This document shows, piece after piece, positions 33,464 through 64,000 of a stretch of 64,000 nt of DNA. The first letter of the stretch is position 1. The number at the start of each line of letters is the position of its first letter. The translations under genes were made by a program, and so were the position numbers. Source of the stretch: a bacterium. Lineage in GTDB: Bacteria > Auribacterota > UBA3054. The stretch lies in contig JAFZXZ010000032.1 in the NCBI GenBank assembly GCA_017616555.1, positions 115,862 to 179,861 of the forward strand. Reading direction: 5' to 3'. Under the pieces are notes generated by a model. The model was not told the DNA's origin and ran no database searches. It saw only the letters and a program-made list of their open reading frames with translations.

Positions 33464-33502
33464 TTTGCTAAAATATATTAAAGTATGTACAGAGAGGTTT
33501 TT
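33464..33502 (+). promoter_or_regulatory. extended -10 promoter plus RBS leader of FGE-domain gene 1
   Basis: ttTGcTAAAATata is an extended -10 element. agagaggtttttATG is the RBS and start. It is near-identical to 36568..36607. Confidence 0.4.
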
Positions 33503-36556: not shown

Positions 36557-36567
36557 GTGATCAAATT

Positions 36568-36607
36568 TTTGCTAAAATATACGCATAATCCGAATAGAGA
36601 GGTTCTT
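36568..36607 (+). promoter_or_regulatory. extended -10 promoter plus RBS leader of FGE-domain gene 2
   Basis: tttgctaaaatata...atagagaggttcttATG is conserved with the paralog leader. Confidence 0.4.
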
Positions 36608-46263: not shown

Positions 46264-47524
46264 TTTTCCTGGAAAAGCAAAGAGCGAGCGTTAGGAGGGA
46301 AAGCAGCGGAAGGAAAACGATGTGCGAATAATCGCAGATGATCGAGCTAAGGTCGCGCTTACTGAAAACGAAAGTCACTTTGTGACGGCCCTTGGGAACA
46401 AGGACCGCCTGCTGCATAAGGTTGCAGCGGACGACGTCTGTTTTCACGCCGTCAACTAGAGCTTTCCAACCTTCCAAGGGTTCGCAAACGAGGACCGCAT
46501 AGCCCGGGAAGTCGAAATTCGCCTGCAGCTCAACTTTTTCCGGCGTGAAATTCACAAGGGAAACAGTGTTTGTGCCATCGCCTTTTTCCGTCGGTTCGCC
46601 AGATTGAATGAGGCAGACGGCGACAGGATCGGTCTCGGCTTTGTTCATAACTGCAAGCGCATCCTCAATTTTGGATATAAGGACGGCGCTTTGCGGAGCG
46701 TAGAAGCGAGGCAGAGTTTTCTCCAGTTCGCCGATAGTCTGGCGCTGGCCCTGGAAGCTGAAATTGCCGACAGGCTTATAGGCAACTCCTTCGCTCTTTA
46801 GATATGCGAGTTCCTCCGCGCCGCCCAAAACGTAGCGGACGTTCGCGTAGAGCAGGCGCTTTGCGATTTTGAGATCGTCGCCGTAGAAGAACGCTTTGCG
46901 CCAGACGCTGGGACGTGAATCCGCCGGCACGTCGATCGTAGGAATATCGTAAAGCGGGAAATACTCCGAGATCCAGGGATTGTAGAAAGCCTTGTTTATG
47001 GCGTGCACTCTGTAGAGCTTGTCAAGCTTCGCAAGCTTTTTGACGCCGTCCGGGCAGGAGAGATCGCGGTAATCGGGAATGATGTAGCGCGTCGCAGTGT
47101 ACAGGCCCTGAATGATAAGAACGGCAATGATCGCGCCGAGAACGAAGGCGCGCTTCTCTTTTCCTATATTGGCTCCGGAGCGAAGCAGGAGAATGGCGGC
47201 GCCGACAACGATCAAAGCGACGCTTCCCCAAAGCACAGCCCGAGAGCGCTGGGCGACGATCAAGCCAAGCTTACCGTCCGTCATCTGGGTAAGCTGGTTG
47301 TCTATCGCGCTCTTGGGCACGCCGCGCTGCCTAAGGATCTGGACCTGGCTCTGGATCATGGGATTCTGATTGAGGTCAGAGATCATTTCAGCGCGTTTAT
47401 TTGAAGAGAAACTTCCGCTTACGACGGAGAGGAAAATTAGCGTTCCCCAAAGCAGCAATACAAGCCAGAAAATAGTGAAGAGCTTGTCGCCGTTGCCTAA
47501 ATTTTGCCAGAAGCGCTTAAGCAT
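46253..47524 (-). CDS. YfhO-like membrane protein, C-terminal part
   Basis: It has three N-terminal TM segments, a large extracytoplasmic domain and a final TM. The 8-nt ATGCTTAA overlap with the upstream ORF suggests translational coupling. Confidence 0.4.
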   Translation of the reverse strand: MLKRFWQNLGNGDKLFTIFWLVLLLWGTLIFLSVVSGSFSSNKRAEMISDLNQNPMIQSQVQILRQRGVPKSAIDNQLTQMTDGKLGLIVAQRSRAVLWGSVALIVVGAAILLLRSGANIGKEKRAFVLGAIIAVLIIQGLYTATRYIIPDYRDLSCPDGVKKLAKLDKLYRVHAINKAFYNPWISEYFPLYDIPTIDVPADSRPSVWRKAFFYGDDLKIAKRLLYANVRYVLGGAEELAYLKSEGVAYKPVGNFSFQGQRQTIGELEKTLPRFYAPQSAVLISKIEDALAVMNKAETDPVAVCLIQSGEPTEKGDGTNTVSLVNFTPEKVELQANFDFPGYAVLVCEPLEGWKALVDGVKTDVVRCNLMQQAVLVPKGRHKVTFVFSKRDLSSIICDYSHIVFLPLLSLLTLALCFSRKNAE

Positions 47525-48755
47525 TGCTTTCCTCCCGGCAGAGTTTTGAAAATCCCAGGGCGCTCAAAGCTGAAAGGGCGAGCATTACCGGGTAGAGGAA
47601 CTTTATGGGGTTGCGCATGTCGCTCATCATCGGCAGATGATAGAAGATCCTGTACGGTCCGAAGCCCGAGGCGCTCCCCGGCGAAACGTCGCAGTAGCGT
47701 CCGTAGGAAAGCAAAAGCCCGATCAAAAAAACGATCGTCCAGAAGATCGCCAGGCCTTTTTCCTTCTCAAAGAAGAGAGAGGCGATGGCCAGGAGCGCCA
47801 GAAGAATTACGACGGCGCCTTCAGCTTGAGTGTTCAGGGAGAAATTCTCCATCCCGCCCTTGGGCCAGGACAGGCTTTGCCCGATCCTGCCGTAGTAGGG
47901 TCCGGTTTCGTCCTGGTTGCCCCAGCCCATGATGCCGGGGAAGACGAGCGAACCGGTTTCCGTAATCGGCAGCGACCACTGCGTCGCCCAGTCCCATTTC
48001 TGCAAGGGCGTTTCCGTCACAGTCTGGACTTCCGCGCCCTTTGCGCTCTTCGAGATCCCCAGCACGTAGAAGAAAGCGTGGGAGCCGAACGAGGCGAAGA
48101 CCAGGGCGGCTAGAACAAATCCCAAAAAGAGTTTGCCGAAGGCTTTTTTCTCCCAAGTCTTCCAGAGCAGGAAGAGCCCGAAAAAGAAAAGCACGATGAG
48201 CATGATGAATCCGATGTCGAACTGGTAGCGCAGGACCAGGGCAGAAAGCACGCCGCTCCAGACCATCGCCACGACGCTTCTTTTGTTAAGCGCTTTCGCC
48301 AGAGCGAAGAGGTCGAACATAAAGGCGGCCCACATCATGAACGTTCCGGCGTGACCACTAAAAACGCAGGTGATGTAGTGGCCCGAGAAAAGCAAAGAAA
48401 GCGCGCCGACAAAGGCTGGTAGGGCGGAAAGCCCCGTCTCCAGAAGGAAAAAGTAAAAGCCCAGCGCCGCCAAAAAGGCGCAGAGCGAAAAGACTACGGT
48501 GTTGTAAAAAGCGGGCGGCACAAACCGCCTGATAGGGGAATAGACTTCGTAGTTGGCCGTGTGTCCGTTTCCCAGGTAGCCGTCCTCCGACCACATTACT
48601 CCGCTCGGTTTGGCGGCTATCTGGGCTTTCCTTACGATCTGATGGAAAGGGGAATCGTTGGCCACTACGGGTTTCGGCGGCAGCAGCACGTTGTGAAAGA
48701 CTGCCGCCGTAACGACAAGAAGACCTAAGATGGAAAGAAGATGTTTGCGCATCAA
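47517..48755 (-). CDS. YfhO/ArnT-like polytopic membrane protein, N-terminal part
   Basis: It has about ten TM helices. Together with 46253..47524 it would give ~835 aa, the length of an intact YfhO-type protein. Confidence 0.4.
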   Translation of the reverse strand: MMRKHLLSILGLLVVTAAVFHNVLLPPKPVVANDSPFHQIVRKAQIAAKPSGVMWSEDGYLGNGHTANYEVYSPIRRFVPPAFYNTVVFSLCAFLAALGFYFFLLETGLSALPAFVGALSLLFSGHYITCVFSGHAGTFMMWAAFMFDLFALAKALNKRSVVAMVWSGVLSALVLRYQFDIGFIMLIVLFFFGLFLLWKTWEKKAFGKLFLGFVLAALVFASFGSHAFFYVLGISKSAKGAEVQTVTETPLQKWDWATQWSLPITETGSLVFPGIMGWGNQDETGPYYGRIGQSLSWPKGGMENFSLNTQAEGAVVILLALLAIASLFFEKEKGLAIFWTIVFLIGLLLSYGRYCDVSPGSASGFGPYRIFYHLPMMSDMRNPIKFLYPVMLALSALSALGFSKLCREESNA

Positions 48756-50586: not shown

Positions 50587-51942
50587 GTGAAAAGAAGTGT
50601 GTTTTACCGATGTGTGTGGGGTTTAAGGCTCCTTCTTTCCGCCCTGACGGTCGCTTGGGGCCTTTTCGTCTTCATTGGCTCAAATGAGTTTCTTCAAAAC
50701 TTGCCGATGTGCCAGCTGGGGCCGGCCGTTTTGCGCTCCTTCTTTGCTTTCGGTCTTAGCGCTATTGCGGTCGTTCTCACCATAGTGCTTCTGACGCTTT
50801 TCTTCGGCCGCCTGTTCTGCTCCTTCATGTGTCCTTTGGGCTCAGCTTTGAGTTTTATCGCGCTCTTTTTCAAAAAAGGGAAGAAAAAGATCTATCCCTT
50901 TATCGGCGGATCTATACTCGGCTTGTTCATCGGTTCTTTGGTTTTCGGAGTAGCCTTCGTTTTCCGTCTGCTCGACCCTTATTCGCTCTTCGGCCGAACG
51001 CTTACCGCGCCGCTTTGGTTCGGCGTTATTTTCCTTGCCGTTATTCTTGCCGTAACGTTTTTCTTCGGCAGGATCTTCTGCGCCAGCATATGTCCAGTCG
51101 GCCTGCTTCTCAGCCTTATCGCCAGAAGATCTGTTTTCGGCATGATCATTCCCAAAGAGTGCGTGCACTGCGGCAAATGCGAGAAGGTCTGCCCGACAGG
51201 CTGCATAGACCAAAAGCAAAGCAAAGTTAGCAACGCATACTGCGTCATGTGCCTGGATTGCCTGACGGTCTGCCCTAAGACCGGACCGACTTTTTCTTTC
51301 CTTTGGAAAAAATCGCAAGAGGAGAAAGCGCCGAACTTGGAGCGCAGACAATTTCTTATTTCCCTTTCCGTGGGCGCCGCGGTCGGCTTGATGGGCGGCG
51401 GACTTTTCAAGGCGGTCTCGAAGAAGCGCGCCAAAGAAGAAGGCGAAAAGGAACTTTTGGTAAGGCCTCCCGGCGCCATAACAGAAAGCTCTTTCTTAGC
51501 GAAGTGCACCGCCTGCGGGCTATGCGTTTCAAAATGCCCGCAGAAAGTGCTGACCTTGGGCCCGGCCGGTTTCGGCGCTCCGCGCCTTGATTTCAAAAAG
51601 GGCTCCTGCTCGCTTGATTGTACGCTTTGTTCCTCGATCTGCCCGACCGGCGCGCTGAGATCGATCGCGCCTGAAAAGAAGAAAACTTTCGTTATCGGCA
51701 AGGCAAATTTCAATGCAAAGAAATGCATCGTATTCCAGGGCGAAGGAGCCTGCGGGAAATGCGCCGCGTCCTGTCCGACCGCAGCCATAACCTTAAGAGC
51801 CAACGGCGCGCCGAAACTGGAAGCTGAAGCGTGCCTCGGCTGCGGCAAATGCCAGAATGTCTGTCCTATCGGTGCCATGCATGTCGCCGGCGCAGCGATA
51901 CAACATTATCTAGATGACCTGAACCAAGGAGCCTCACTATGA
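50587..51942 (+). CDS. membrane polyferredoxin, NapH-like N-terminus fused to NapG-like C-terminus
   Basis: There are four TM helices with two CX3CP motifs (CSFMCP and CASICP). Two cytoplasmic-type CxxCxxCxxxCP clusters follow. An internal Tat-like RRQFLISLSVGAAVG segment is followed by four more 4Fe-4S motifs. It has a GTG start. Confidence 0.6.
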   Translation: MKRSVFYRCVWGLRLLLSALTVAWGLFVFIGSNEFLQNLPMCQLGPAVLRSFFAFGLSAIAVVLTIVLLTLFFGRLFCSFMCPLGSALSFIALFFKKGKKKIYPFIGGSILGLFIGSLVFGVAFVFRLLDPYSLFGRTLTAPLWFGVIFLAVILAVTFFFGRIFCASICPVGLLLSLIARRSVFGMIIPKECVHCGKCEKVCPTGCIDQKQSKVSNAYCVMCLDCLTVCPKTGPTFSFLWKKSQEEKAPNLERRQFLISLSVGAAVGLMGGGLFKAVSKKRAKEEGEKELLVRPPGAITESSFLAKCTACGLCVSKCPQKVLTLGPAGFGAPRLDFKKGSCSLDCTLCSSICPTGALRSIAPEKKKTFVIGKANFNAKKCIVFQGEGACGKCAASCPTAAITLRANGAPKLEAEACLGCGKCQNVCPIGAMHVAGAAIQHYLDDLNQGASL

Positions 51943-53165
51943 ACAGACGCGAATTCCTAAAGACCGCCGCAGCCGTAGCGGCGCTCATCGCCCTGGGCGG
52001 CTGTAAGAAGGAAGCGAAGACCTCGGAGAAAAAACGGGGGACTATGACCTGTCGGGAATTCCCAGGCATTGGCGCGAAAGTTTCGCTTCTCGGCTACGGT
52101 CTCATGCGCATGCCGAAAGTCGGCAACGGTCCTGAGATCGACAAGGAAAAGGGCTTCGCTCTCATCGACGAAGCCATGAAGGGCGGCATCAACTACTACG
52201 ACACCGCTTGGTTCTATCATGACGGTCTTTCCGAAACTTTTGCCGGCGAAGCGCTCTCACGCTATCCGAGAGACAGCTACAACCTCGCCAGCAAGCTTCC
52301 CATGCGCCTCCTTGAAAGCGGCGAGCAGGCAGAGGAGATCTTCAATAAGCAGCTTGAGAAATGCAAGGTCGATTACTTTGACTTCTACCTTCTGCATAAT
52401 CTGAACGGCCCGCTTTGGGAAAAGACGCTTCATAACGGCGCGGTGGATTTTGCCATGACTTTGAAAGGCAAGGGCAAGATAAAACGCCTGGGCTTCAGTT
52501 TCCACGGCGACAATAAGGATTTTCCGAAGATCTTGGACTACACCAAGTGGGATTTCGTCCAGATTCAGGCCAATTACTTCGACTGGGATAATTTCTCCAA
52601 AGAGCAGTATGAGGAGGCGACCAAAAGAGGCATCCCGGTGGTCGTAATGGAACCTCTGAGAGGAGGGGAACTGGCCAACAATCTGAGACCGGCCGCCGTG
52701 GAAGTCTTGGAAGAAGCCAAGCCGGGCTCTACCCCGGCGCAGTGGGCCTTCAGGTTCATCGCCTCGAAGCCTAATGTCCTGACGGTCCTTTCCGGCATGA
52801 CGAAGATGGAGCACCTTAAAGAAAACCTCACCACTTTCTCGCCCTTCGAGCCCATAACGCAGGAGGAAGAGCAGGTCTTGGCGAAAGCTCTCCAGATCTA
52901 CAAAGAGGACGGCAAAGTGCCCTGCACCGGCTGCCGCTACTGCACGCCCTGTCCGGCGGGCGTCGCCATTCCCGACATCTTCAAACTTTACAACGAGTAC
53001 AGGACGAAGATGAGAAAGAGGGACGCCATGAGAGAATATGAAAACCTGGGCAAGGACGCCATGGCCACGGCCTGCGTAGAATGCGGCGCCTGCTTGAAAA
53101 AATGTCCGCAGAGCATCGACATTCCCAAGGAACTCAAACGCATTCATAAAGAACTGAAAGGATAA
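51939..53165 (+). CDS. Tat-exported lipoprotein aldo/keto reductase with C-terminal 4Fe-4S domain
   Basis: It has a twin-arginine motif (NRREFLK) and lipobox ALGGC. It has an AKR core (GINYYDTAWFY, DYFDFYLLHNL) and C-terminal CTGCRYCTPCP...CVECGACLKKCP. Confidence 0.7.
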   Translation: MNRREFLKTAAAVAALIALGGCKKEAKTSEKKRGTMTCREFPGIGAKVSLLGYGLMRMPKVGNGPEIDKEKGFALIDEAMKGGINYYDTAWFYHDGLSETFAGEALSRYPRDSYNLASKLPMRLLESGEQAEEIFNKQLEKCKVDYFDFYLLHNLNGPLWEKTLHNGAVDFAMTLKGKGKIKRLGFSFHGDNKDFPKILDYTKWDFVQIQANYFDWDNFSKEQYEEATKRGIPVVVMEPLRGGELANNLRPAAVEVLEEAKPGSTPAQWAFRFIASKPNVLTVLSGMTKMEHLKENLTTFSPFEPITQEEEQVLAKALQIYKEDGKVPCTGCRYCTPCPAGVAIPDIFKLYNEYRTKMRKRDAMREYENLGKDAMATACVECGACLKKCPQSIDIPKELKRIHKELKG

Positions 53166-53168
53166 ACT

Positions 53169-54419
53169 ATGAACAGAAGAGATTTCATCAAAGGCTCCCT
53201 GGCTATCGCCGCTCTGGCGGCCCTGGGCGGCTGCAAAGAAGGAAAGGAACCCACCGACGTGAAAGCAGGTAATAGCGAGAAAAAGCAAGGCGAAATGACT
53301 AAACGCAAACTCGGAAACATCGCCAGCGGCGTTTCCCTTTTGGGCTACGGCTTAATGAGGCTTCCCCTCAAAGACCGCAGGAATCAGGCGGAAATTGACA
53401 AGGAAAAAGCCCAGGAGCTTATCGACAGAGCTATGGCTGGCGGTGTCAACTACTACGACACCGCCTGGGTCTATCACCAGGGCATGTCGGAAAGATTCGC
53501 CGGCGAGGCTCTGAAAAAATATCCGAGAGAATCCTTCAATCTGGCGGACAAGATGCCGGTCTGGGAAGTCAAAAGCTTGGACGACGCCCAAAGGATCTTT
53601 CAGGAACAGCTGGACCGCTGCCAAGTGGATTACTTTGATTTCTATCTTCTGCACTCTCTTAACGGCGGCGCCTGGCCGAACGTCAGGGACCTGGGCGCTT
53701 TGGAATACGCCAGGAAGATGAGAGAGGAAGGCAAGGTTAAATACCTGGGCTTCAGTTTTCACGGCGACAATAAAGATCTGGCTGTCATAGCCGACGAGGG
53801 CGGCTGGGACTTCGCCCAGATACAATTGAACTACTTCGACTGGGACGACTACTCCAAAGAGCAGTACGAGATCCTAACCAGCCACAACATTCCCGTCATC
53901 GTCATGGAGCCTCTTAAAGGCGGCGAACTCGCCAATCTTCAGCCCAAGACGCTGGAGATGCTGACGAACGCCAGGCCCGGGACTACCGGCGCGCAGTGGG
54001 CTTTCGAATTCATCGCCTCGCTGCCAAACGTGCTGACCATCCTATCCGGCATGACTTTTATGGAGCATGTGGAAGAGAACCTCAAGACCTTCTCTCCCAT
54101 AGAGCCTCTTGGCGAGGAAGGCAAAGAGCTTCTTGTGAAGGTCAAGGAATTCATGAAGGAAGAAGGGAAGATCCCCTGCACCACCTGCCGCTACTGCACG
54201 CCCTGCCCGGTTGGCGTAGCCATCCCCGACATCTTCAAGATGTACAACAACTATCGCTCGTCTCTCATTAAGTGGATGTCCCAGCGGGAGTATTTCCAGC
54301 TTGACAAAGGCGCCCGCGCCGACGCCTGCGTGGAGTGTGGCGCGTGCCTGAAAAAGTGCCCGCAGAAGATCAACATCCCCGAAGAATTGAAGCGCGTGCA
54401 CAAAGAGTTCACAAGCTAA
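53169..54419 (+). CDS. Tat-exported lipoprotein aldo/keto reductase with C-terminal 4Fe-4S domain (paralog)
   Basis: It has NRRDFIK and ALGGC. The AKR and Fe-S motifs are collinear with the upstream paralog. Confidence 0.7.
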   Translation: MNRRDFIKGSLAIAALAALGGCKEGKEPTDVKAGNSEKKQGEMTKRKLGNIASGVSLLGYGLMRLPLKDRRNQAEIDKEKAQELIDRAMAGGVNYYDTAWVYHQGMSERFAGEALKKYPRESFNLADKMPVWEVKSLDDAQRIFQEQLDRCQVDYFDFYLLHSLNGGAWPNVRDLGALEYARKMREEGKVKYLGFSFHGDNKDLAVIADEGGWDFAQIQLNYFDWDDYSKEQYEILTSHNIPVIVMEPLKGGELANLQPKTLEMLTNARPGTTGAQWAFEFIASLPNVLTILSGMTFMEHVEENLKTFSPIEPLGEEGKELLVKVKEFMKEEGKIPCTTCRYCTPCPVGVAIPDIFKMYNNYRSSLIKWMSQREYFQLDKGARADACVECGACLKKCPQKINIPEELKRVHKEFTS

Positions 54420-54420
54420 T

Positions 54421-55125
54421 ATGGGAAAAGCTTTTCTTCTCATAGTTTGTTTTTCTTTTGCTCTTTTTGGCGCTGATGGACAAGACTTCTCCCAATCGTC
54501 TGACAATTGCGCAAAAACAGAGCAGCCGGAGTGGGTGCCTCCTCTGGAAAAGCGATTGTTATCGGAAAACATGGAGGAGGCTCTTACCAACTGGTTTGTT
54601 TTTGTCAAAGATTCTCTCAAAGAACTTAAAGACGAGGACAGAAATAGAATAAGGGAAAACTTCTTGAAAGAATGTGCCAAACCAGGACATTTTTCTCTTT
54701 CAGGTTTTTTGAAAGAGGCGGAAAAATTTTCCAAAAACAAAAATGCTCTTCATCTCAGCGGAGTGCATATGCTCTGCTACGATGTGTTAGATTCCAAACG
54801 TTATCTTGAAAGACTGGGCTTATACGAAAAGGTTTTGGCGATAGACATTTTTTTCAATGACTTGGAAGCGTTCTCAAAAAACATGGACAGATTTCTGGCG
54901 CTCGCCGAAGCGAGCCGTACTGCTCCATATAAGGTTAACGAAGTCAGTTCTCTTATGCCTGGCAGTTACTCTTGGGATATCAGGTTTTATGTTTCGAGAA
55001 CCGCTAACAAATACGACACATATTTGACGCAAAAGCAGCAAGCAAAAGTTAAGAGACTATCCTCGGATTTGCCAACTTTTAAAGAATTTTTAATATTTAT
55101 TTTCCGAAGTATTATTAGAATCTAA
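54421..55125 (+). CDS. hypothetical protein with N-terminal hydrophobic segment (low-GC islet)
   Basis: GC is ~40% against the ~58% background. The N-terminal MGKAFLLIVCFSFALFGA is signal-like. No domain was recognised. Confidence 0.4.
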   Translation: MGKAFLLIVCFSFALFGADGQDFSQSSDNCAKTEQPEWVPPLEKRLLSENMEEALTNWFVFVKDSLKELKDEDRNRIRENFLKECAKPGHFSLSGFLKEAEKFSKNKNALHLSGVHMLCYDVLDSKRYLERLGLYEKVLAIDIFFNDLEAFSKNMDRFLALAEASRTAPYKVNEVSSLMPGSYSWDIRFYVSRTANKYDTYLTQKQQAKVKRLSSDLPTFKEFLIFIFRSIIRI

Positions 55126-55369: not shown

Positions 55370-55633
55370 ATGCCGACGATCATACCAATCAGGGACCTAA
55401 GAAAAACCAGCGAAATATCAGAAATGGCACACAGCAAAAAAGAACCTATTTTCGTGACGAAGAACGGTTACAGCGATCTTGTCATAATGAGCGCAGAATT
55501 GTATGACCGCCTTGTTAGAATAAGCAAGATAGACCAGGCTATCTTTGAAGCCGAAAAAGAAGTGGAGAAAGGCGGCAAAACAGTCGAGCTAAAGAAAGCT
55601 TGGAAAAAATTGGACAAAAAATATTATGGATAA
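55370..55633 (+). CDS. Phd/YefM-family type II antitoxin (no cognate toxin gene adjacent)
   Basis: MPTIIPIRDLRKTSEISEM...EPIFVTKNGYSDLVIMSAELYDRL is the Phd/YefM signature. An aaaggagg RBS is present. GC is ~42%. The 3' end overlaps a convergent gene by 10 nt. Confidence 0.7.
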   Translation: MPTIIPIRDLRKTSEISEMAHSKKEPIFVTKNGYSDLVIMSAELYDRLVRISKIDQAIFEAEKEVEKGGKTVELKKAWKKLDKKYYG

Positions 55634-56772
55634 ATAAGAGCGAGGTGGCGGCGCGCTTGGGCGGCGAAGCGGAAGGAGAGATCTTCGATGCCGAAGACGC
55701 GGCGGCCTATGAGGTAGCTTTCCTGGATGTCGTTGAAAGGCTTGTACCAGTGCTCTGAGAGCGTGGCGTTTCCCCAGGCCGCACCCGCGATCGAGCCGGC
55801 GGTGGCGGCGGTACAGTCGCAGTCGTGGGCCATGGCGACGCACTGCGAGATGACGGTGTCAACTGACTTCGTTTCGTGGCCGAGGCCCAGGGCGAATATG
55901 GTCAGGCAGGCGTTGTTGATGGTATGGACGGGAGACATTTCGGGGAAGCGTTCATCGACTAGTTTCGCGGCTTCTCTGTAGTCTTTTACTTTGCCGTAAA
56001 GGGAGAGGGCCCATTTAATCGCTTCCGCCAGGTCGCAGTTTTCCGGGATCTCAAATAATCCCGCTTCCAAGGCGGATGAGGGATCTTTCAAGGCGAAGGC
56101 TGCGGAGATGACGGCTGCAAAATACATTTCCCCGTAGATGCCGTTTTTGCGGTGGCTGATGTAGGCGTCGGTGTAGGCTAATTTGGCGGCTAATCTCGGG
56201 TTGCCGGGGGCCATGTAGGCGAAGCCGTCGCAGCGGATGTCGGCGCCGATCCATTCGTCGTAATGGTTGTTTATCTCAGCGGCTTTTTCGGGAGCAACGC
56301 CGGCTTTTAGATTGTCCAAGGTCACTTTCTCAGCGGTGCAGGCCATGGGCAGGTATTTGAGCCAGGCATTTGCCACGTCTTCGAGAGCAAAAGGGAAATT
56401 CTTCGCTTCTTCGGCAATGAGGAGTCCCAGAATGGTGTAGGTGGTGTCGTCATCCACGGGAGAATATCTCATCTCTCCCTTGGTGTACTGGCGGTTTCTG
56501 CCGAGAATGTAGCGCGGTTCCTCAGGATCAGGGGAAGAGGGCCAGTAGTCGGTCATGGGGTAGGGGACGCCGATCTCCTTGGCGTAATTTTCCATTTTTA
56601 TGAGAGACCAGCCTTCCACTATGGCTCCCAGGTTGCAGCCGGCTATACGGGCCAAGAGGGAGCTTAAAACCATGCTCTGGTAATCGTCAGGGATCTCGGT
56701 CCAATATTTTTTGCTGCCTTGGGGAGAGGCGGCGACTATTTCTTCGTAAGCGTTGGGTTCGCGGTCAGGCAT
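55624..56772 (-). CDS. ADP-ribosylglycohydrolase family protein (DraG/ARH-like)
   Basis: It has the ADP-ribosylglycohydrolase fold signature (DDDTTYTILGLL, GGDCDCTAATAGSIAGA...). It is the last gene of the minus-strand operon. Confidence 0.65.
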   Translation of the reverse strand: MPDREPNAYEEIVAASPQGSKKYWTEIPDDYQSMVLSSLLARIAGCNLGAIVEGWSLIKMENYAKEIGVPYPMTDYWPSSPDPEEPRYILGRNRQYTKGEMRYSPVDDDTTYTILGLLIAEEAKNFPFALEDVANAWLKYLPMACTAEKVTLDNLKAGVAPEKAAEINNHYDEWIGADIRCDGFAYMAPGNPRLAAKLAYTDAYISHRKNGIYGEMYFAAVISAAFALKDPSSALEAGLFEIPENCDLAEAIKWALSLYGKVKDYREAAKLVDERFPEMSPVHTINNACLTIFALGLGHETKSVDTVISQCVAMAHDCDCTAATAGSIAGAAWGNATLSEHWYKPFNDIQESYLIGRRVFGIEDLSFRFAAQARRHLALIYP

Positions 56773-57070
56773 TCTGCTTTTCCTTGCGGCGGGCGATGAA
56801 GGCGAGTGTTACCTGGATAAGCTCGGCGGCGGCGAAGCCGGTCCAGCTGATGACGAGAAGGCCGTTGCTGGCGGCCTCGGCGTTCCAGAGCTTGATAACG
56901 TTGGCTTTCAGTTCGTTTGTGATGGTGGGGGCGTTCTGGAAAGCCGCTACTGCTTCCTCATGTAATGAGGTGAAGTTGGCGAACCTGGGAGCGAAGGCGA
57001 TGAGCATGGCGATGGCCCAGAGAAAAACCACTACCGCCAGCGCATCCGCGGCTTTGCGGTAAGCGTTCAT
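56765..57070 (-). CDS. small two-TM membrane protein
   Basis: It is 101 aa with two hydrophobic helices. It has an ATGCCTGA overlap with the downstream ARH gene and a 2-nt gap from the upstream gene. Confidence 0.45.
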   Translation of the reverse strand: MNAYRKAADALAVVVFLWAIAMLIAFAPRFANFTSLHEEAVAAFQNAPTITNELKANVIKLWNAEAASNGLLVISWTGFAAAELIQVTLAFIARRKEKQNA

Positions 57071-57071
57071 G

Positions 57072-57797
57072 TCAGGGCTCCTCGACTTCGGATGGTGAGA
57101 AGAGGCTCACGGATTCCACGCACTTTAAGCCCATCAGCTGGGCGGTGGCGTATTCCTCGCTGACCCTGAACCTCAGACGGAAGGAGTAGGTGGCCTCGAT
57201 GGCGGTGCCGGATTTTATGGTGCGGGAGTGCAGCATTTTTATGGAAGTGCCGAGTTGCTTCATGCGGCCCATGATCTCAGCGCCAGAATCAAGCTTGCTC
57301 TCTGGATTCTCGGTGCTGAAAATGATCTTGGCGATTATCTCTCTGTGGCGGAGGCTCCAGGGAGTGTATTCCGTGAAGACGAAGGAGAGCCAGATGATGA
57401 CGAAGCCGATGGCGCCGATCCTGTGCTGGCCGGTGCCGGCAGCCATGCCAAGGGCCACGGCCATGAAGACGAAAGCGGTGTCGCGGTTGTCCTTTATGAT
57501 GGTGCGGAACCTGACGACGCTCATGGCGCCCATCAATCCGAAGGCCACGGCCACGGCGGAGGAGCCCCTGACGTTCAGGATGACCATCATCACAAGCGTT
57601 ATGATGATCTCCATCATGACAAGCGTTTGCATGAAGGTCTTGTTGCCGTGCACGCCGCGGCAGAAGCGGTAGAGCAAAACCAAGAGGAACGCGAAGAGCG
57701 CGGCTACGGCGAAGTTGTTGACCACGTCTATCCAGGTGGTCGGCGCCAGGGCGTTCAGCGTCCACTGCATCATTTCATATTCGGCAGTCTGGTTCAT
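57072..57797 (-). CDS. DUF4956-family membrane protein
   Basis: Four TM helices in the N-terminal half are followed by a soluble C-terminus. It is the typical partner of VTC-domain proteins. Confidence 0.6.
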   Translation of the reverse strand: MNQTAEYEMMQWTLNALAPTTWIDVVNNFAVAALFAFLLVLLYRFCRGVHGNKTFMQTLVMMEIIITLVMMVILNVRGSSAVAVAFGLMGAMSVVRFRTIIKDNRDTAFVFMAVALGMAAGTGQHRIGAIGFVIIWLSFVFTEYTPWSLRHREIIAKIIFSTENPESKLDSGAEIMGRMKQLGTSIKMLHSRTIKSGTAIEATYSFRLRFRVSEEYATAQLMGLKCVESVSLFSPSEVEEP

Positions 57798-57800
57798 AAA

Positions 57801-58544
57801 TTAACTTTCCTCCTCGCGCAATATGACTTTTTCTATGCAGTGCGCGTATTTGGATATGGAAGTCTGGGTGATCTCGAATTTGGTCAAAAAGCGCCGCATC
57901 CATTCCGGCATGAGGCGGTCGAATTTCAGTTCCAGTATGGCTCCGGGAAGCGCGATCTGCTCCTCCTCGTATGGCTCGAAAAGCGTGTAGGAATAGGAAT
58001 GATCCACAGCCCTTAAATTAGTGTCGATGGTGAACCTCACTTCGCCGTCGTCTTTTCCGATGAAGGGGTTGCGGTCGTAGATGACGGTGGTCATGGGACG
58101 ATACCCTTTGACGAAGCAGTTGTGCAAAAAGCGGTGGGCGTTGGCCCTCAGGTAGTCGGTGGGAAACTCCACTTCATCGAGAGTCTTGCTGCGGTCCATG
58201 ATCTCCTGAAGCTCGCTTAATTTCATGGGCGCGCGGTCTTTGCCGACCTGCTGGCGGGAGCGGTATTTTATTTCCAGGAAAACATTGTTCTCAGGCGTGA
58301 CGTTGGCGTAACCTCTGACGCGGAATTTTCTGCGGTCTTTCAAGCCTATGAGTTTTTCTTTGTAAAGCGTCAGGTTGTCGTCATCGAAATAAACGGAGCG
58401 GATGGTGTAGCCGGGGACGCCCAGGCCGTTGGGCTTGGCGTGCTGGTCGGGCTGAACGTAAGGCGATGCGTACGCTATGGCCTTGTCTATAAGGTCATAG
58501 GGAAGAAAATACTTCAGCTCATAGCGGCCGTGGAAATTCGCCAT
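57801..58544 (-). CDS. VTC-domain (CYTH-like, polyphosphate-polymerase-domain) protein
   Basis: The N-terminal YELKYFLPYD and the size (247 aa) match bacterial VTC domain proteins. Confidence 0.6.
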   Translation of the reverse strand: MANFHGRYELKYFLPYDLIDKAIAYASPYVQPDQHAKPNGLGVPGYTIRSVYFDDDNLTLYKEKLIGLKDRRKFRVRGYANVTPENNVFLEIKYRSRQQVGKDRAPMKLSELQEIMDRSKTLDEVEFPTDYLRANAHRFLHNCFVKGYRPMTTVIYDRNPFIGKDDGEVRFTIDTNLRAVDHSYSYTLFEPYEEEQIALPGAILELKFDRLMPEWMRRFLTKFEITQTSISKYAHCIEKVILREEES

Positions 58545-58547
58545 TTT

Positions 58548-59642
58548 TCACTCCTTGCGAAGGGAGTTGTTGAATTTCTGATAGAGAGAGCGCAGAGCCG
58601 CAAGAGAGGAGTGGTAAGGGTCTATCTTGATGGAGGGGATGATGGCTTCGCCGGTCATGGAGGAGATGGCGGAGAAGGGGACGTCCCTTATGGGGATGAG
58701 AGCGTGCACGACGGAAAGGCCCATCAAGGGGACCGGAACGATGGAAACGGATTCCACTTTGCCGGTGACGGTCAGATTCTCATTGTGGAAAGACAAAACA
58801 GCTTCGAGGCCGGGCTGGATCTCGTTGGAGAAATTCAGTGGGGCCACCACGCGGGCGTAGATGGGATCCTCGTTGACAACTCTTAGGATGGTCTTGACTT
58901 CCGGGTCAAGCGAGACCTGCGTGACGCGCCCGTTTACAGGGGTCGTAACCGTCCTGGCTTCCAGGCGGTCGTTGACCATTTCCAACTCTTTCTGCGCGAC
59001 GCGCAGTTCCGCTTTGGCCGTATTTATGACGTTGGAGGAGCAGGCCATTTTGCGGGCGTTCAGGTCGGCTTCCGCCACGCTGATCTCCGCGAAACGGCTG
59101 TTCAGCTCCTCCTCCGCCTGCTGCACCTCGTCGTTGGAAATGTAGCCGGTGTTGTAGAGCACGCGGCGGCGCTCCACGAGGGGAAGGTAGCTGTAATAAT
59201 TCGTGTAGGCCAGGGAGACGAGTTTTTCGCCTTCCGTGACGCGCTCCTGCAATTCGCCGGAGAGAAGATTGTCCAAGGTGGCCTGGTACATATCGACTTT
59301 GGCCTGGAGCATCTTCTTCTGCGATTCGTCGTAGAGGGAGTGGAAGGTCAGGACATGGTCGCCAACTTTGACTAGGGACCCTTCTTTAATGCCGGGCGCC
59401 AGTTCCGTATTGACCACGTCGTAGCGGTCAAAGCGGAAGGTCGTGACGCCGGCCAGGGCCTGCATGCGGCCTTTCAGGTGCTTGGCTATAAAGTCCCCGG
59501 GCCTTTCCTGCTGGATGGTCCATTGCTCGGATGCCTCCAATTCAAAAGGACACTTCAAAGCGGCGACGTCGGTCTGCAAAATAAAATACAGAACGACGCC
59601 GGAAATGGCGATGATGAGGAAATATCTAAGCCAAAGCCACAC
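58548..59642 (-). CDS. HlyD-like membrane-fusion / periplasmic adaptor family protein
   Basis: It has an N-terminal TM, a lipoyl-like beta-hairpin (VKEGSLVKVGDHVLTF), a long coiled-coil and a beta-barrel (PVNGRVTQVSL). No cognate ABC/RND pump gene is adjacent. Confidence 0.55.
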   Translation of the reverse strand: MWLWLRYFLIIAISGVVLYFILQTDVAALKCPFELEASEQWTIQQERPGDFIAKHLKGRMQALAGVTTFRFDRYDVVNTELAPGIKEGSLVKVGDHVLTFHSLYDESQKKMLQAKVDMYQATLDNLLSGELQERVTEGEKLVSLAYTNYYSYLPLVERRRVLYNTGYISNDEVQQAEEELNSRFAEISVAEADLNARKMACSSNVINTAKAELRVAQKELEMVNDRLEARTVTTPVNGRVTQVSLDPEVKTILRVVNEDPIYARVVAPLNFSNEIQPGLEAVLSFHNENLTVTGKVESVSIVPVPLMGLSVVHALIPIRDVPFSAISSMTGEAIIPSIKIDPYHSSLAALRSLYQKFNNSLRKE

Positions 59643-59658: not shown

Positions 59659-61113
59659 CTACCTTCTGAGGAAAGCGCCGGCAAGAGCCAGCAGAGCCAT
59701 CAGGGCGAAAGCCGGTTCGGGAACACTGTTGGTCTCGCAGGGCGTTCCGTAGATCGCGACCGATGCGGCCCAGGCGTTGGGCTGAGTGTTGTCGGCGTTG
59801 GGATCGCTCAACTCAAGACTTGGGCCGAGTCCGGCGCAGCCGGTAGGCCAGGGAGCGGTGGAGCGGTAGGTGACAACGTCCACTTCCTGTCCGTTGGCAT
59901 TCTGGAGAGAGATAGTGTCGCCGGTGTTGGAGAGGCCGAAGTCGAATTCGTAGATGGCGGCGCCGACAGGGAGGGCGTAAACCGTCTCAATGGCGGCCTG
60001 GCGGTCGGTGATGAGCAGGAATTCCCTGGCGCCCAACACAGTGTCCTTGGGCAGACGGTACTTGTCGTCGCTCGTCTCAAAACGCCAGTAGCTGACGTCA
60101 ATGTCTTCGTCGGTGCGGTTGAAGAGCTCCACGTATTCGTAGTTCTTGCAGTTGCCCTTCGTGTTGGTGTAGGCTATGTCGAGGCACTGGTACATGATCT
60201 CGTTGATGACGACGCCGGAATAAACGGGATCGTTAGTGACGACGTACATGTAGGGAGCTCTGTAGGCGTTCCAGTATTTTCTAAGGGTGTTGCCGCTGTA
60301 ATCTTCGACCAGGGCGTAATAGAAGACGGTGGTGCCTTCTTCCATAGCAGGAAGATTGCAGACCCATTCGTTGCCTTCCAGGATGGTCATGCTCTTGGCG
60401 GTGTAATCGCCGTTTTCGGAAGTGGAGTAGAAGATCTTGGCGCTCTTTACAGCTTTGTCATCCCTGCTGTTGTCATAGGCCCAGATGTGTATTTCCGGGG
60501 AGGTGACGGAGGTGGGGGCGTTGGGGTTGCGGCTGTGCTTGCCGACATAGAGTCCGCAGGTCTCGGGATTTTTCGTGCCGGGGGAGCCGCCTTCCGCATT
60601 GCTGACATTCCAGGTCTGCCAGGTGTTGTTGTAGTCGGCGTAGGGATAGACGAGCACGTTGGAATAAGCGGAGCCGTCCGGCCATTCGCCGCCGTCAGAG
60701 ATGGTGGAATATTCGATCTTGTGCTGAACTTTGCCGGTCTTGTCAATTAAGACCACGTCGTCGCTGTTTTTGCCAAAGCCGATGCCGGTGGGGCCGAGGA
60801 TATTAGACACAGTGGGATAGATGTCGCAGAAGGCCGCGTCGGAATAAAGGACTACGCATTCGCCGGCGGCAAGAGTCGTGCCTTCCGGGATAGTGTACAG
60901 CGTTCCGCCCTCGTCGTATTTGTCGTCGCCGAGCTTCCAGCCGGAGATATTGACAGCGCCGTCGCCGTAGTTGCAGATCTCCACCCAGTCGTCGCTCTTA
61001 AAAGGCTTCTTGGCGTCGTAGGTGAATTCGCTGATGAGGACATCAGCCAAAAGGCCGACGGACATAAGGCCAGCGAGCAGAGCCGGGAGGTATTTGTGAA
61101 GTTTCATGACCAT
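59659..61113 (-). CDS. secreted protein with two lamin-tail (LTD) domains and a C-terminal PEP-CTERM sorting signal
   Basis: LISEFTYD...WVEICNYGDGAVNISGWKLGD and VINEIMYQ...EYVELFNRTDEDIDVSYWRF are LTD signatures. The C-terminus is VPEPAFALMALLALAGAFLRR. Confidence 0.65.
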   Translation of the reverse strand: MVMKLHKYLPALLAGLMSVGLLADVLISEFTYDAKKPFKSDDWVEICNYGDGAVNISGWKLGDDKYDEGGTLYTIPEGTTLAAGECVVLYSDAAFCDIYPTVSNILGPTGIGFGKNSDDVVLIDKTGKVQHKIEYSTISDGGEWPDGSAYSNVLVYPYADYNNTWQTWNVSNAEGGSPGTKNPETCGLYVGKHSRNPNAPTSVTSPEIHIWAYDNSRDDKAVKSAKIFYSTSENGDYTAKSMTILEGNEWVCNLPAMEEGTTVFYYALVEDYSGNTLRKYWNAYRAPYMYVVTNDPVYSGVVINEIMYQCLDIAYTNTKGNCKNYEYVELFNRTDEDIDVSYWRFETSDDKYRLPKDTVLGAREFLLITDRQAAIETVYALPVGAAIYEFDFGLSNTGDTISLQNANGQEVDVVTYRSTAPWPTGCAGLGPSLELSDPNADNTQPNAWAASVAIYGTPCETNSVPEPAFALMALLALAGAFLRR

Positions 61114-61273
61114 TCTCCTGTTTGGGATGAATTAGAGCGTAGCTATCAATTTTATTTCAGTATCTTTTTATTCTATCCAAAAAGGGGAAATGAAACAAGG
61201 TGCAGGGGACTCAAAATTTGTCAGAAGCCCAAAATTTGATAAAATGAGTGAAATAATCCCTAGGAGGTTTTTT

Positions 61274-64000
61274 ATGCGCAAGCACTACCAGATCCTGGCC
61301 GCCGTTATCGCGGTCATCTTTGCCGTGACGTCTTTCGCCGCGGATTTCTGCCTTACTCTTGACCCCAACGGGGCCAAGACAGCCCAAATTTCCTCGACGT
61401 ACCCCGGCGCTCCGGAACCGAAGGTCGAGAATGCTATGTTTTCCCTCGCCGAACTTAAGATCGGCGACACGGTGACATTCCTGACGCCCCAGGGCGAACT
61501 GAAGGGTGACGTCACTTACGCTGTCAAAGACGTGAACGGCATAGTCTGCCGAGCCGGCAATCTGGACAATTTCGCCGGCCAGTGGCGCATCGCGGCCGGT
61601 CCCAACGTGCTTTTCGGCGTTGTGGAAGACCTTACGGCCGACGCCCGCTATGAGATCAGCGGCACCAAGCAGAAAGGCGTTTACGAGGTTAAGGAATGCT
61701 CCTATAGCGAGCGCTGCGCCCAGATGTCTAACCCGGAGGACCACGAGGCGCCCGTCTGGGAAGAGCAGAACTCTATCGCAGGCTTCGGCGTTCCCGCCGC
61801 TGACCTTACTCCCGAGCAGTCTGCCTGGGCCGCCAACTGGGACGACGACGAAGTGGTGGAGCTGACCATCATAGTCCTTTTCTCCAACCAAACAATCGAA
61901 TCCGCCGGCAGCCTGGAAGCCGCCAATACTAAAGTGGCCGCAGGCATTGCGGTCTGCAACCAGGCTATGCAGAACAGCCTTATCAAAGCGAAGCTGACCT
62001 GCGTCGGAACGTACCTTTGCGACTACGAGGAGACGAAGGACTCGAGCCTTGACCTCTCCCGCATGCAGCAGGGCAAGGAAGGCTTCGAGTTCGTGCCTGC
62101 CTTGAGAAACAAGCTGGGCGCTGACTTCGTCTGCTACGCTCCGAGATACATGACTTCCGGCTGGGCCGGCTTGGGATATGTCCACGGCAGTCCGACAGGC
62201 GCGGAAGGCTGCGGTTTCCATATCGTGCTCTATAGCTACTTGGAAGATCTTTCCTGGGTCCACGAGTGGGGCCACAATATGGGCTGCAACCACTCCGCCG
62301 AACAGTCATCCAGTCCCGGCCCCTCCGACGGCGGCCTTTTCGGACACAGCCTGGGCTGCTACTTCTACGCCACCAACCTTACCCAGAGATGCCTTTCCAT
62401 CATGACCTACCACGGCAGCTGGAACGGCACTTACTACGGCTACAGGGTGCCTTACTTCTCCGAACAGTTCCTCAACTACGGCGGCTCCGCGGTCTATTAC
62501 AACAGTAAGACAAGATGCGCCACCGTCTGGCAGAAGATCAGAAAGTACGCCTCTCTGTACCGCACGCCTCCCGTCCTTTCCGAATTCAACTGCGGATTCG
62601 AAGCGGACGAAGACTTCTATCTGGGCGACGCCACCTGGCAGCAGGGCATAATCAATCTTAGCGCCACCGGCCAGATCAAGGAAGAGAGCGGCAACTATTA
62701 CCTCCACAGCCAGGGCGGCAACGGCTTCCAGGTTCCCGTTAACGTCAGGTCCGACAACGGGTATGGCACCTACAAGGTCAGCGTAAGGGTCAAGCCGACT
62801 TTCGGCGGCACCTACTTTGACATCAGGGGCGCCAAGGACGCCCTCTGCTACGCTTACGTCACCAGCGACGGAAAGCTGAGCCTGGCCTGTTCTTCCACTC
62901 CCGGCGGCAGCGTCAACAAATCCACCACTCTGCAGCAGATCTCTACCGGCTGGCAGACCTGGACCTTCTTCATCGACGAAAACAACAAGGAGTTCATAGG
63001 CTGGTCCGTCAATAACGAGTACCACAGCGCGACCGAATGCTACGTCGCGGGTTCCGACGACGTTTACGTCAGTTCCGTCTGGCTCAAAGACGTCAGCTCG
63101 GGCGGCGCCGATTTCGACGACATCCATGTGGACTGCGGCATCGGCGATCTTAAGCTTTCTGCCAAGCCGATGGAAATAGGCTCCACCCTTACCGCCATCA
63201 CTCTGACGAACTGCCACGAGAACACCACCATAAAATACAAAGCCAAGATCGTAAAAGGCGCCGATCACTTCACGATCTCCCCGGTGGAAGGCCTTTTCAA
63301 GAGCGACGCCACGATCCAGGTGGAAGCTTTCGATCTTCCCACCACTCCCCAGTTCCTGGAATGCGTGGTGGAAGTGGAAGCCGGTTACGCCGGCACAAAG
63401 AGAGTGCGCCTTGGCGCGCCCTGCGGCAACGAAACTGACGGCTACGGTCTCTATTCCGCCGATCTTTCCACGTTCCCGAAAGGCGATCCCGGCGATTACG
63501 ACTGCCTCTGGGAAGACGGCGGCAGTCTCGATTACGCTTTCGACCACTATGTGACGGAAGTCTTGCTTGACGAAGACTTCGAAGATTATCCCGGCAACAC
63601 CAACCTTGGCGGCATCGGCGGCTGGGGAAGCGGATACGGCACCATAGACAGGGACGGCTCCATCTACGTCAGGGAAAGATTCGGCAACAGGTATTGCGAG
63701 ATCGCCTACGTCAACAATCTCTTCGGCGCTCACAAGACCCTTGACAAGACAATGAAGCCCAACTGGTGGGCCGGCCACACCAAAGGCTACTTCCGCATCA
63801 GCTTCGACGCGATGCTGACCGGCACTTCCAGCAAGTTCTTCGGACTCTGGGATCCCCAGATGGTGGAAGGCAACTTCGAGTATGTCAACGGCAGCGGCTA
63901 CCGCTTCCGCAGCAACGCCAGTGACGCCAACCATACGGAGTTCGTTTCCCAGAATTACATTTCCCAGGCCAGCTGGACGAGAGTCAGCATGATCATAGAG
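61274..64000 (+). CDS. large secreted metzincin-type zinc metalloprotease (3' end beyond window)
   Basis: It is not in the ORF track because no stop occurs before the window end. RBS aggagg lies at 61263. It has a signal peptide (MRKHYQILAAVIAVIFAVTSFAA). The frame stays open for 909 codons with GC3-rich codon usage. HEWGHNMGCNH is an HExxHxxGxxH motif. Confidence 0.65.
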   Translation, partial: MRKHYQILAAVIAVIFAVTSFAADFCLTLDPNGAKTAQISSTYPGAPEPKVENAMFSLAELKIGDTVTFLTPQGELKGDVTYAVKDVNGIVCRAGNLDNFAGQWRIAAGPNVLFGVVEDLTADARYEISGTKQKGVYEVKECSYSERCAQMSNPEDHEAPVWEEQNSIAGFGVPAADLTPEQSAWAANWDDDEVVELTIIVLFSNQTIESAGSLEAANTKVAAGIAVCNQAMQNSLIKAKLTCVGTYLCDYEETKDSSLDLSRMQQGKEGFEFVPALRNKLGADFVCYAPRYMTSGWAGLGYVHGSPTGAEGCGFHIVLYSYLEDLSWVHEWGHNMGCNHSAEQSSSPGPSDGGLFGHSLGCYFYATNLTQRCLSIMTYHGSWNGTYYGYRVPYFSEQFLNYGGSAVYYNSKTRCATVWQKIRKYASLYRTPPVLSEFNCGFEADEDFYLGDATWQQGIINLSATGQIKEESGNYYLHSQGGNGFQVPVNVRSDNGYGTYKVSVRVKPTFGGTYFDIRGAKDALCYAYVTSDGKLSLACSSTPGGSVNKSTTLQQISTGWQTWTFFIDENNKEFIGWSVNNEYHSATECYVAGSDDVYVSSVWLKDVSSGGADFDDIHVDCGIGDLKLSAKPMEIGSTLTAITLTNCHENTTIKYKAKIVKGADHFTISPVEGLFKSDATIQVEAFDLPTTPQFLECVVEVEAGYAGTKRVRLGAPCGNETDGYGLYSADLSTFPKGDPGDYDCLWEDGGSLDYAFDHYVTEVLLDEDFEDYPGNTNLGGIGGWGSGYGTIDRDGSIYVRERFGNRYCEIAYVNNLFGAHKTLDKTMKPNWWAGHTKGYFRISFDAMLTGTSSKFFGLWDPQMVEGNFEYVNGSGYRFRSNASDANHTEFVSQNYISQASWTRVSMIIE

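Follow-up and report, generated by a model that had tools for sequence, protein, structure and literature searches.

The window analysed here is a 64,000-nucleotide stretch from an uncultured, ruminant digestive-tract bacterium of the Auribacterota lineage UBA3054 (assembly GCA_017616555.1, contig JAFZXZ010000032.1, positions 115,862 to 179,861 of the forward strand). It carries on its minus strand a compact gene cluster, the predicted core of which comprises four genes. These encode a surface protein with Lamin Tail Domains (LTD), in other phyla fused to a CotH kinase domain, a periplasmic adaptor of the membrane-fusion protein (MFP) type, a VTC-domain enzyme, and a DUF4956 membrane protein. 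The locus is a form of the CotH/VTC/DUF4956 cluster without the kinase and with an adaptor, apparently suited to bacteria that have an outer membrane. Its products could form a machine that spans both membranes, makes polyphosphate, and exports it to the cell surface, a proposal whose chances are considered evenly balanced. The VTC-DUF4956 pair is widespread and has no assigned function, yet it is part of biofilm (Pel) and virulence loci, and an adaptor with an intact TolC-docking motif fixed to this pair makes synthesis and export across two membranes a concrete and testable model. The ADP-ribosylglycohydrolase (ARH) gene, to which an initial annotation of the locus had drawn attention, is the least conserved part of it.

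The initial annotation listed five minus-strand genes with operon-like packing. All five open reading frames (ORFs) were recovered at exactly those coordinates, tightly packed, with intergenic spacings of 3 nt between adaptor and VTC, 3 nt between VTC and DUF4956, and 1 nt between DUF4956 and a gene for a 101-aa membrane protein, which in turn overlaps the ARH gene by 8 nt. A sixth co-directional gene, absent from that list, lies 16 nt upstream of the adaptor gene and encodes the LTD protein, being the first gene of the putative operon. A terminator scan revealed no strong minus-strand terminator between the cassette genes. The four domain calls of the initial annotation also stood, since the VTC, DUF4956, and ADP_ribosyl_GH assignments pass Pfam, whereas the HlyD-like call fails the profile cut-offs and is rescued by the predicted fold.

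The VTC-domain protein (57801-58544, minus strand, 247 aa) is predicted to be cytoplasmic, with a triphosphate-tunnel fold, and matches Pfam VTC (PF09359) at 142.2 bits (cut-off 23; E 2.6e-41) over profile positions 2-234 of 235. The alignment of a profile built from six bacterial VTC proteins spans the full catalytic domain of yeast Vtc4 (3g3q, 2.9e-19), and in the alignment residues K11, R75, R77, K93, Y156, R158, E205, and S231-K232 of the window protein correspond to K200, R264, R266, K281, Y359, R361, E426, and S457-K458 of Vtc4, respectively. The residues from K11 to E205 in this series are invariant in the six bacterial homologues, down to 27% identity, and the S231/K232 motif is kept in all five homologues that reach it, the sixth sequence being truncated. 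The standard catalytically dead Vtc4 is the R264A/R266A/E426N variant (PMC9911596). The protein can be regarded as a putative polyphosphate polymerase whose Vtc4-type active site is intact. As in the yeast and protist VTC complex, composed of the Vtc4 tunnel and the Vtc1/2/3 channel, an enzyme with all the Vtc4 catalytic residues has a multi-pass membrane protein as its genetic partner, so that synthesis may be coupled to translocation (PMC9911596). However, the bacterial enzyme is a polypeptide of its own, distinct from the membrane component, which is a DUF4956 (MgtC-like) protein, and the proposed target is the periplasm or cell surface, not the vacuole. Neither an SPX sensor nor a Vtc1-type channel was found by Pfam in the VTC protein, which consists of the tunnel domain only, or in the neighbouring DUF4956 protein.

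The gene immediately upstream of VTC (58548-59642, minus strand, 364 aa, GTG start) is predicted to encode a periplasmic adaptor. It has no Pfam match at E<=0.01, and the NCBIfam models HlyD, MdtN, and EmrA score 32-41 bits (1e-10 to 1e-8), curated cut-offs being far higher (95-393). The AlphaFold (AF2) model, with a pLDDT of 85.9, shows an N-terminal transmembrane helix (residues 2-26), beta domains, an alpha-hairpin with arms of ~60 residues (103-164/170-228), a beta-barrel, and a C-terminal helix. Foldseek searches with this model place MacA, EmrA, AcrA, and MexA on top (E~1e-14), the matches to MacA, EmrA, AcrA, MexA, and ZneB ranging from E 3.6e-14 to 1e-9 at a probability of 1.00. The adaptor identity is right despite the sub-threshold profile scores because the predicted fold matches MacA, EmrA, AcrA, and MexA. 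Moreover, the protein contains an RLS motif, R158-x3-L162-x6-S169, which flanks the turn at residues 165-169 of the predicted hairpin tip and is well kept in the adaptor family (R in 135 of 138 members, L in 131, and S in 100, with Thr in another 8). In MacA, AcrA, and HlyD, the RLS motif (RxxxLxxxxxxS) at the tip of the hairpin serves for TolC docking (PMC3391258).

The delineation of the adaptor family depended on the search. A word-indexed homologue search returned only relatives of at least 72% identity, and a 16-member family profile retrieved almost only generic MFPs. Exhaustive phmmer searching outlined a family of ~350-aa proteins with 84 cluster representatives at E<1e-10. Some members, at 21-24% identity, pass Pfam HlyD_D23 or HlyD_3, and there is a gradual transition from the family to canonical HlyD proteins. 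With MacAB-TolC, EmrAB-TolC, and HlyBD-TolC, the window adaptor shares the fold, the long hairpin, and the RLS motif, and its N-terminal transmembrane anchor is as in MacA, EmrA, and HlyD. It differs from the adaptors of tripartite efflux and type I secretion in its sub-threshold Pfam and NCBIfam scores and in its partners, since no ABC, RND, or MFS gene adjoins it in the loci with flanks (L007, L022, L023, and L047), and DUF4956 and VTC are, respectively, the sole membrane partner and the sole nucleotide-using protein encoded. The initial annotation was correct in describing an adaptor without an ABC or RND partner: family scans of the whole 64-kb window found no ABC, RND, or MFS transporter gene and no TolC-like or OEP-family gene. 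The sole transporter-family match is a MatE (MATE-family) gene at 12830-14215, ~40 kb from the operon.

These same observations could be accommodated by a three-part exporter in which VTC would be a nucleotide-driven motor, DUF4956 the membrane unit, and the adaptor the duct, for a cargo other than polyphosphate, such as another anionic polymer, a lipid-linked compound, or a small molecule. Such an exporter would explain the strict adaptor-VTC-DUF4956 adjacency without any ABC, RND, or MFS gene, the adaptor fold with its RLS motif, and the location of Gram-positive relatives inside exopolysaccharide or glycosyltransferase clusters (among them those of PMC7112168). Nevertheless, the conserved residues of the VTC protein are those of the polyphosphate polymerase Vtc4, including the K200 and K458 equivalents, triphosphate-tunnel enzymes are not known as transport motors, and no glycosyltransferase lies near the window cassette, so that a different cargo seems unlikely.

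The gene order that underlies the polyphosphate proposal is conserved well beyond the genus of the window. Within this ruminant-gut genus, the six genes and a neighbouring Reprolysin-like gene are syntenic in eight species-level genomes and in many metagenomic contigs. A sister lineage (L007, adaptor 72% identical) retains the order LTD, adaptor, VTC, DUF4956, and a 102-aa protein, after which convergent, unrelated genes follow. Outside the genus, the adaptor gene stands directly upstream of VTC in 13 loci (L007, L022, L023, L025, L046, L047/48, L049, L037-L041, and L044), with DUF4956 next where the contig allows. VTC identity in these loci is 29-72% and GC content 33-67%. Across very distant lineages, the adaptor-VTC junction consists of gaps of 0-12 nt or of overlaps, and DUF4956 is immediately downstream of VTC in every locus examined. 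Seven of the eight adaptor-family members with a readable context (P0015, P0138, P0156, P0145, P0167, P0207, and P0264) immediately precede VTC, followed by DUF4956 where the contig continues, and the eighth is a solo paralogue from a genome that also has the full cassette. The solo paralogue of GCA_012514975.1 (L024) adjoins rpmF-plsX-fab genes.

The association also holds when approached from the enzyme. When only the VTC protein was used in a contig scan, most of what it retrieved belonged to the same genus. Searching with a three-sequence VTC alignment yielded six metagenomic VTC relatives (29-52% identity) whose contigs extend upstream of the gene, and in each of them the adaptor gene comes directly before VTC; the three loci with enough flank all have an LTD protein before the adaptor. 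The cassette ends at DUF4956 in L039 and L041, beside an apparent tRNA gene, judged from reading-frame shape with no tRNA scan. From the shared gene order, the core would be the four genes (CotH-)LTD, adaptor, VTC, and DUF4956, and not the five initially proposed as a conserved unit, which are syntenic as a set only within the genus.

Two of these loci have noteworthy neighbours. In a metagenomic lineage with 66% GC, a membrane H+-pyrophosphatase gene, encoding a second phosphoanhydride enzyme beside the cassette, is located ~400 nt upstream of adaptor-VTC-DUF4956-(LTD+CotH) (L047 4247-6460 and L048 2209-4449). A hint of mobility comes from GCA_012514975.1 (L023 5939-7678), where the LTD gene of the cassette is preceded at ~400 nt by genes for a phage-type integrase and an HTH_17 protein.

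Association of VTC and DUF4956, often with CotH, was already on record and uncharacterised, as the initial annotation stated. Such clusters occur in Gram-positive Pel loci of streptococci, clostridia, and bifidobacteria (PMC7112168) and in Clostridium perfringens NELoc-2 (PMC2879425). They have the same VTC-then-DUF4956 order, and in some of them a secreted LTD protein adjoins, as here. However, the window cassette has no CotH domain and an LTD-only partner with a PEP-CTERM anchor, an MFP-type adaptor directly upstream of VTC, no polysaccharide genes alongside, and a small membrane protein and ARH appended. The adaptor is absent, even at E<0.1, from four Gram-positive CotH-VTC-DUF4956 loci (an Erysipelotrichaceae metagenome-assembled genome (MAG), Pseudobutyrivibrio pNP95, a Planococcus plasmid, and Nonomuraea), and the published Gram-positive Pel loci are also described without it (PMC7112168). 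A 308-aa Planococcus protein encoded upstream of VTC was considered as an adaptor and rejected. No paper linking a VTC domain to an HlyD/MFP adaptor was found in the searchable literature, which is incomplete, in agreement with the earlier view that the arrangement had not been described.

A variant without the adaptor was found in a Lishizhenia MAG of the Bacteroidota (L021 9093-11212), where the order is DUF2490, VTC, DUF4956, sulfotransferase, and phosphodiesterase/TPR, with a divergent CotH+LTD protein that has a type IX secretion signal. DUF2490 occupies there the position of the adaptor. This family belongs to an outer-membrane beta-barrel clan, and its member here is probably an outer-membrane barrel.

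The LTD surface protein (59659-61113, minus strand, 484 aa) contains two LTD stretches (Pfam LTD 4.7e-35) and is organised as a signal peptide, a first LTD, a central Ig-like region, a second LTD, and a PEP-CTERM-like anchor (VPEPAFALMALLALAGAFLRR). Hydrophobicity analysis shows hydrophobic segments at both its N- and C-termini, and the latter is composed of a PEP motif, a hydrophobic helix, and a basic tail (...NSVPEPAFALMALLALAGAFLRR). The NCBIfam PEP-CTERM model gave no match to it at E<=0.01. A VPEP or TPEP motif followed by a transmembrane segment and an RR tail is common to the LTD orthologues in L007, L023, L040, and L041, in which, as in the window, the surface partner is LTD-only with a PEP-CTERM tail. 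Other lineages have different versions of this partner: L022 and L025 have a CotH+LTD protein with a type IX secretion sorting domain, L047 a CotH+LTD protein with no sorting domain detected, and L044 a small LTD protein with a lipobox-like N-terminus.

The initial annotation presented the cluster as an alternative to the CotH association and suggested looking for a CotH homologue elsewhere. No CotH domain was detected in the window by tblastn with two CotH+LTD queries, of which only the LTD segments aligned. The upstream LTD gene, in contrast, is the counterpart of the LTD portion of the CotH+LTD proteins found beside the cassette in other phyla, so the opposition to CotH does not hold. The constant extracellular partner is LTD rather than the CotH kinase, and the kinase is dispensable because intact LTD-only partners exist in several lineages. 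This bears on the possibility that the cassette supplies a phosphoryl donor to extracytoplasmic CotH-type kinases and that the window lineage retains a degenerate remnant without the kinase. A secreted kinase does require an extracellular donor, and CotH+LTD proteins flank adaptor-VTC-DUF4956 in L022, L025, and L047, as well as VTC-DUF4956 in the Gram-positive loci. However, at least five lineages have an LTD-only partner of ~480 aa with an intact reading frame and a conserved PEP-CTERM tail, and with no CotH in the window a donor role of this kind looks quite improbable.

The DUF4956 protein (57072-57797, minus strand, 241 aa) is an inner-membrane protein by prediction and matches Pfam DUF4956 at E 5.7e-16, above the gathering score. 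It has ~5 hydrophobic helices and a C-terminal soluble domain, and a loop RFRTxxKDxxD is invariant in the alignment columns of DUF4956 proteins. This layout, together with a weak MgtC similarity, agrees with the description of a streptococcal DUF4956 homologue as MgtC+ACT (PMC12345266). Mutants of Streptococcus intermedius in the DUF4956 and CotH genes (SIR_1592 and SIR_1594) show altered Pel levels and reduced Pel-dependent aggregation (PMC12345266). In the window cassette, DUF4956 is proposed to act as the membrane partner of VTC, or as its channel.

VTC and DUF4956 might, alternatively, operate inside the cell, in polyphosphate storage or in an MgtC-like homeostasis of phosphate or energy, with the adaptor and LTD genes co-regulated with them and no conduit formed. 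The resemblance of DUF4956 to MgtC, the H+-pyrophosphatase gene upstream of the cassette in L047/L048, and the lack of an outer-membrane factor gene in any locus are compatible with that role. Nevertheless, the adaptor is tightly joined to VTC across very distant lineages, retains its TolC-docking motif, and is missing where there is no outer membrane, while a secreted surface protein recurs throughout as the third partner; a purely intracellular function is, consequently, rather improbable.

In the proposed synthesis-export machine, the cytoplasmic VTC enzyme would polymerise polyphosphate from ATP, like the tunnel domain of yeast Vtc4. It would dock on the MgtC-like DUF4956 protein, through which the nascent chain could be threaded across the inner membrane, much as the yeast VTC complex couples synthesis to translocation. 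The membrane-anchored adaptor would provide a periplasmic duct, and the RLS tip of its hairpin would dock an unlinked, TolC-type outer-membrane channel. TolC is commonly unlinked. Finally, the PEP-CTERM-anchored LTD protein, CotH-fused in other phyla, may receive or use the polymer at the cell surface. Genome sequence and structure prediction establish the conserved gene order, the domain and fold assignments, the Vtc4-type catalytic signature, the RLS motif, and the lack of an adaptor in the Gram-positive loci sampled, whereas the polyphosphate product, the channel role of DUF4956, the contacts between the components, the outer-membrane partner, and the role of LTD are inferred.

Several points weigh against this proposal. 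No bacterial VTC-domain protein shown to make polyphosphate was found in the literature searched, and no outer-membrane factor gene was found in the window or in related loci. Nor would a dense polyanion be an obvious cargo for a TolC-type duct. The similarity of DUF4956 to MgtC is weak, 0.12 for the window protein and 2.5e-4 for the L022 homologue, and a single-sequence AlphaFold model of DUF4956 was unusable, with a pLDDT of 47.6. MgtC itself is not known to be a channel. Moreover, the contrast in adaptor occurrence between one-membrane and two-membrane bacteria rests on 4 versus 13 loci, and the adaptor loci are mostly metagenomic, their outer membrane being deduced from PEP-CTERM, type IX secretion, or lipoprotein signals.

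A broader interpretation, held tentatively and given somewhat less than an even chance, is that the cassette represents a fourth class of two-membrane machine. Its inner-membrane engine would be a Vtc4-type polymerase on a DUF4956 channel instead of an ABC, RND, or MFS protein, and polyphosphate would pass through an MFP/TolC-type duct to surface LTD proteins, alone or CotH-fused. Bacterial polyphosphate is attributed to PPK1 and PPK2, and this fourth class, if real, would be a PPK-independent bacterial route dedicated to extracellular polyphosphate. The synthesis-export model, if right, would add a new inner-membrane engine to the repertoire of tripartite pumps and would also provide bacteria of the rumen and gut with a source of polyphosphate at their surface.

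The two last genes of the operon seem to be peripheral to this core. The small membrane protein without family (56765-57070, minus strand, 101 aa) contains a strong hydrophobic segment and another that is weaker, so it probably has two transmembrane helices, and it gave no Pfam, NCBIfam, or PADLOC match. It is found only in this genus and the sister lineage, where L007 has the 102-aa orthologue, and no homologue was detected after DUF4956 in L022, L039-L041, or L047. The ARH-fold glycohydrolase (55624-56772, minus strand, 382 aa), predicted to be cytoplasmic, is encoded by the last gene and matches Pfam ADP_ribosyl_GH at 1e-37 (130.8 bits against a gathering score of 26.2). The protein belongs to the same Pfam fold family as DraG, ARH1-3, and Tri1, and in the alignment with DraG its D317 and D319 fall on the C-terminal DxD and its N-terminal Glu also aligns. 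However, it falls far below the equivalog cut-offs, with 26.2 versus 337 bits for DraG (TIGR02662) and 20.1 versus 490 for Tri1 (NF041672), and two motif positions usually occupied by Asp and Thr have the family-invariant C46 and C320 instead. Residues E53, D107-D109, D317, and D319 are invariant in 18 homologues. No relative in the PDB was obtained by single-sequence search; with the family profile, only the C-terminal ~60 residues, which include the metal motif, align with DraG and ARH3.

The distribution of the ARH gene differs from that of the core. In the cassette it is present only in this genus, where it is kept in all sampled species, and it is absent from the sister lineage (L007-L010) and from all 13 adaptor-VTC loci outside the genus. 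A word-index search returned 2876 relatives; beyond the genus, the closest share 54-60% identity and belong to Firmicutes, Phycisphaerae, Latescibacterota, and other groups. In two contexts inspected, from Firmicutes and Phycisphaerae, the relative is solitary among unrelated metabolism genes, without VTC or DUF4956. ARH is most likely a recently appended gene with a function independent of the cassette. Against this, the 8-nt overlap with the 101-aa gene is kept in at least eight species-level genomes, and it may point to a genuine functional link within the genus. A foreign origin of the ARH gene by composition was considered and gave no signal, its GC (0.56) and GC3 (0.70) being like those of its neighbours.

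The initial annotation had interpreted the five genes as a membrane-associated module for ADP-ribose or nucleotide signalling or for defence, assessed here as one centred on ARH and, for defence, directed against phage. This interpretation could draw on the overlap with the small membrane gene, on the presence of ARH in all sampled species of the genus, and on the strain-variable region with a toxin-antitoxin remnant that flanks the 3' end of ARH. However, in addition to the absence of ARH from the sister lineage and the 13 outside loci, to the solitary and unrelated contexts of its close homologues, and to its scores far under the DraG and Tri1 equivalog cut-offs, PADLOC was empty for the six proteins (E<=0.01), no ADP-ribosyltransferase is encoded nearby, and the surroundings are housekeeping genes. 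Synteny largely refutes a signalling or defence module of this type, which is considered very unlikely.

Upstream of the operon, an AT-rich divergent intergenic region (61114-61273), presumed to contain promoters, separates the LTD gene from a plus-strand gene for a Reprolysin-like metalloprotease (61274-64000, continuing past the end of the window). A promoter scan of this region returned nothing decisive, a single sigma-70-like match on the plus strand only. The metalloprotease (~1700 aa) has an HEWGHNMGCNH motif, and its full-length copy in L001 (2182-7269) carries a Reprolysin_5 match and a PEP-CTERM tail. This gene is beside the cassette in the window lineage and in the sister lineage L007 and absent from L022, L023, and L047; it is not part of the core cassette.

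Downstream of the operon, an orphan Phd/YefM antitoxin gene (55370-55633, plus strand) is convergent with ARH, and the last 10 nt of the former run over the stop codon of the latter. The antitoxin gene is accompanied by one for a ParE toxin in strain L006, and in strains L001 and L002 the C-terminus of ARH differs (379 versus 382 aa) and the ARH and antitoxin genes are ~300 nt apart. A 234-aa ORF without family (54421-55125, plus strand) lies in a low-GC patch (0.45 versus 0.54 for the window) and is absent or replaced in the same-species strains L001 and L002. The segment at 54-56 kb looks like a strain-variable islet just past the 3' end of the operon.

Elsewhere, the window contains housekeeping genes, including those for GAPDH, PGK, MutL, NusB, RibBA, ArgG, UvrD, TldD/PmbA, TatC, and GcvT. 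Three further gene groups were observed among them. What looks like an exported redox module (50587-54419, plus strand) consists of a membrane protein resembling polyferredoxins and, after it, two aldo/keto reductase paralogues, each with a TAT signal and a 4Fe-4S domain at the C-terminus; one of the reductase copies is disrupted in strain L003. At 33485-39085 (plus strand), two adjacent proteins of 1023 and 842 aa each have a C-terminal FGE-sulfatase (formylglycine-generating enzyme-like) domain after a long N-terminal region without family match. Finally, two adjacent proteins of 423 and 412 aa without Pfam family (46253-48755, minus strand) are encoded between a glycosyltransferase-like gene and gcvT, and this pair is kept in related strains.

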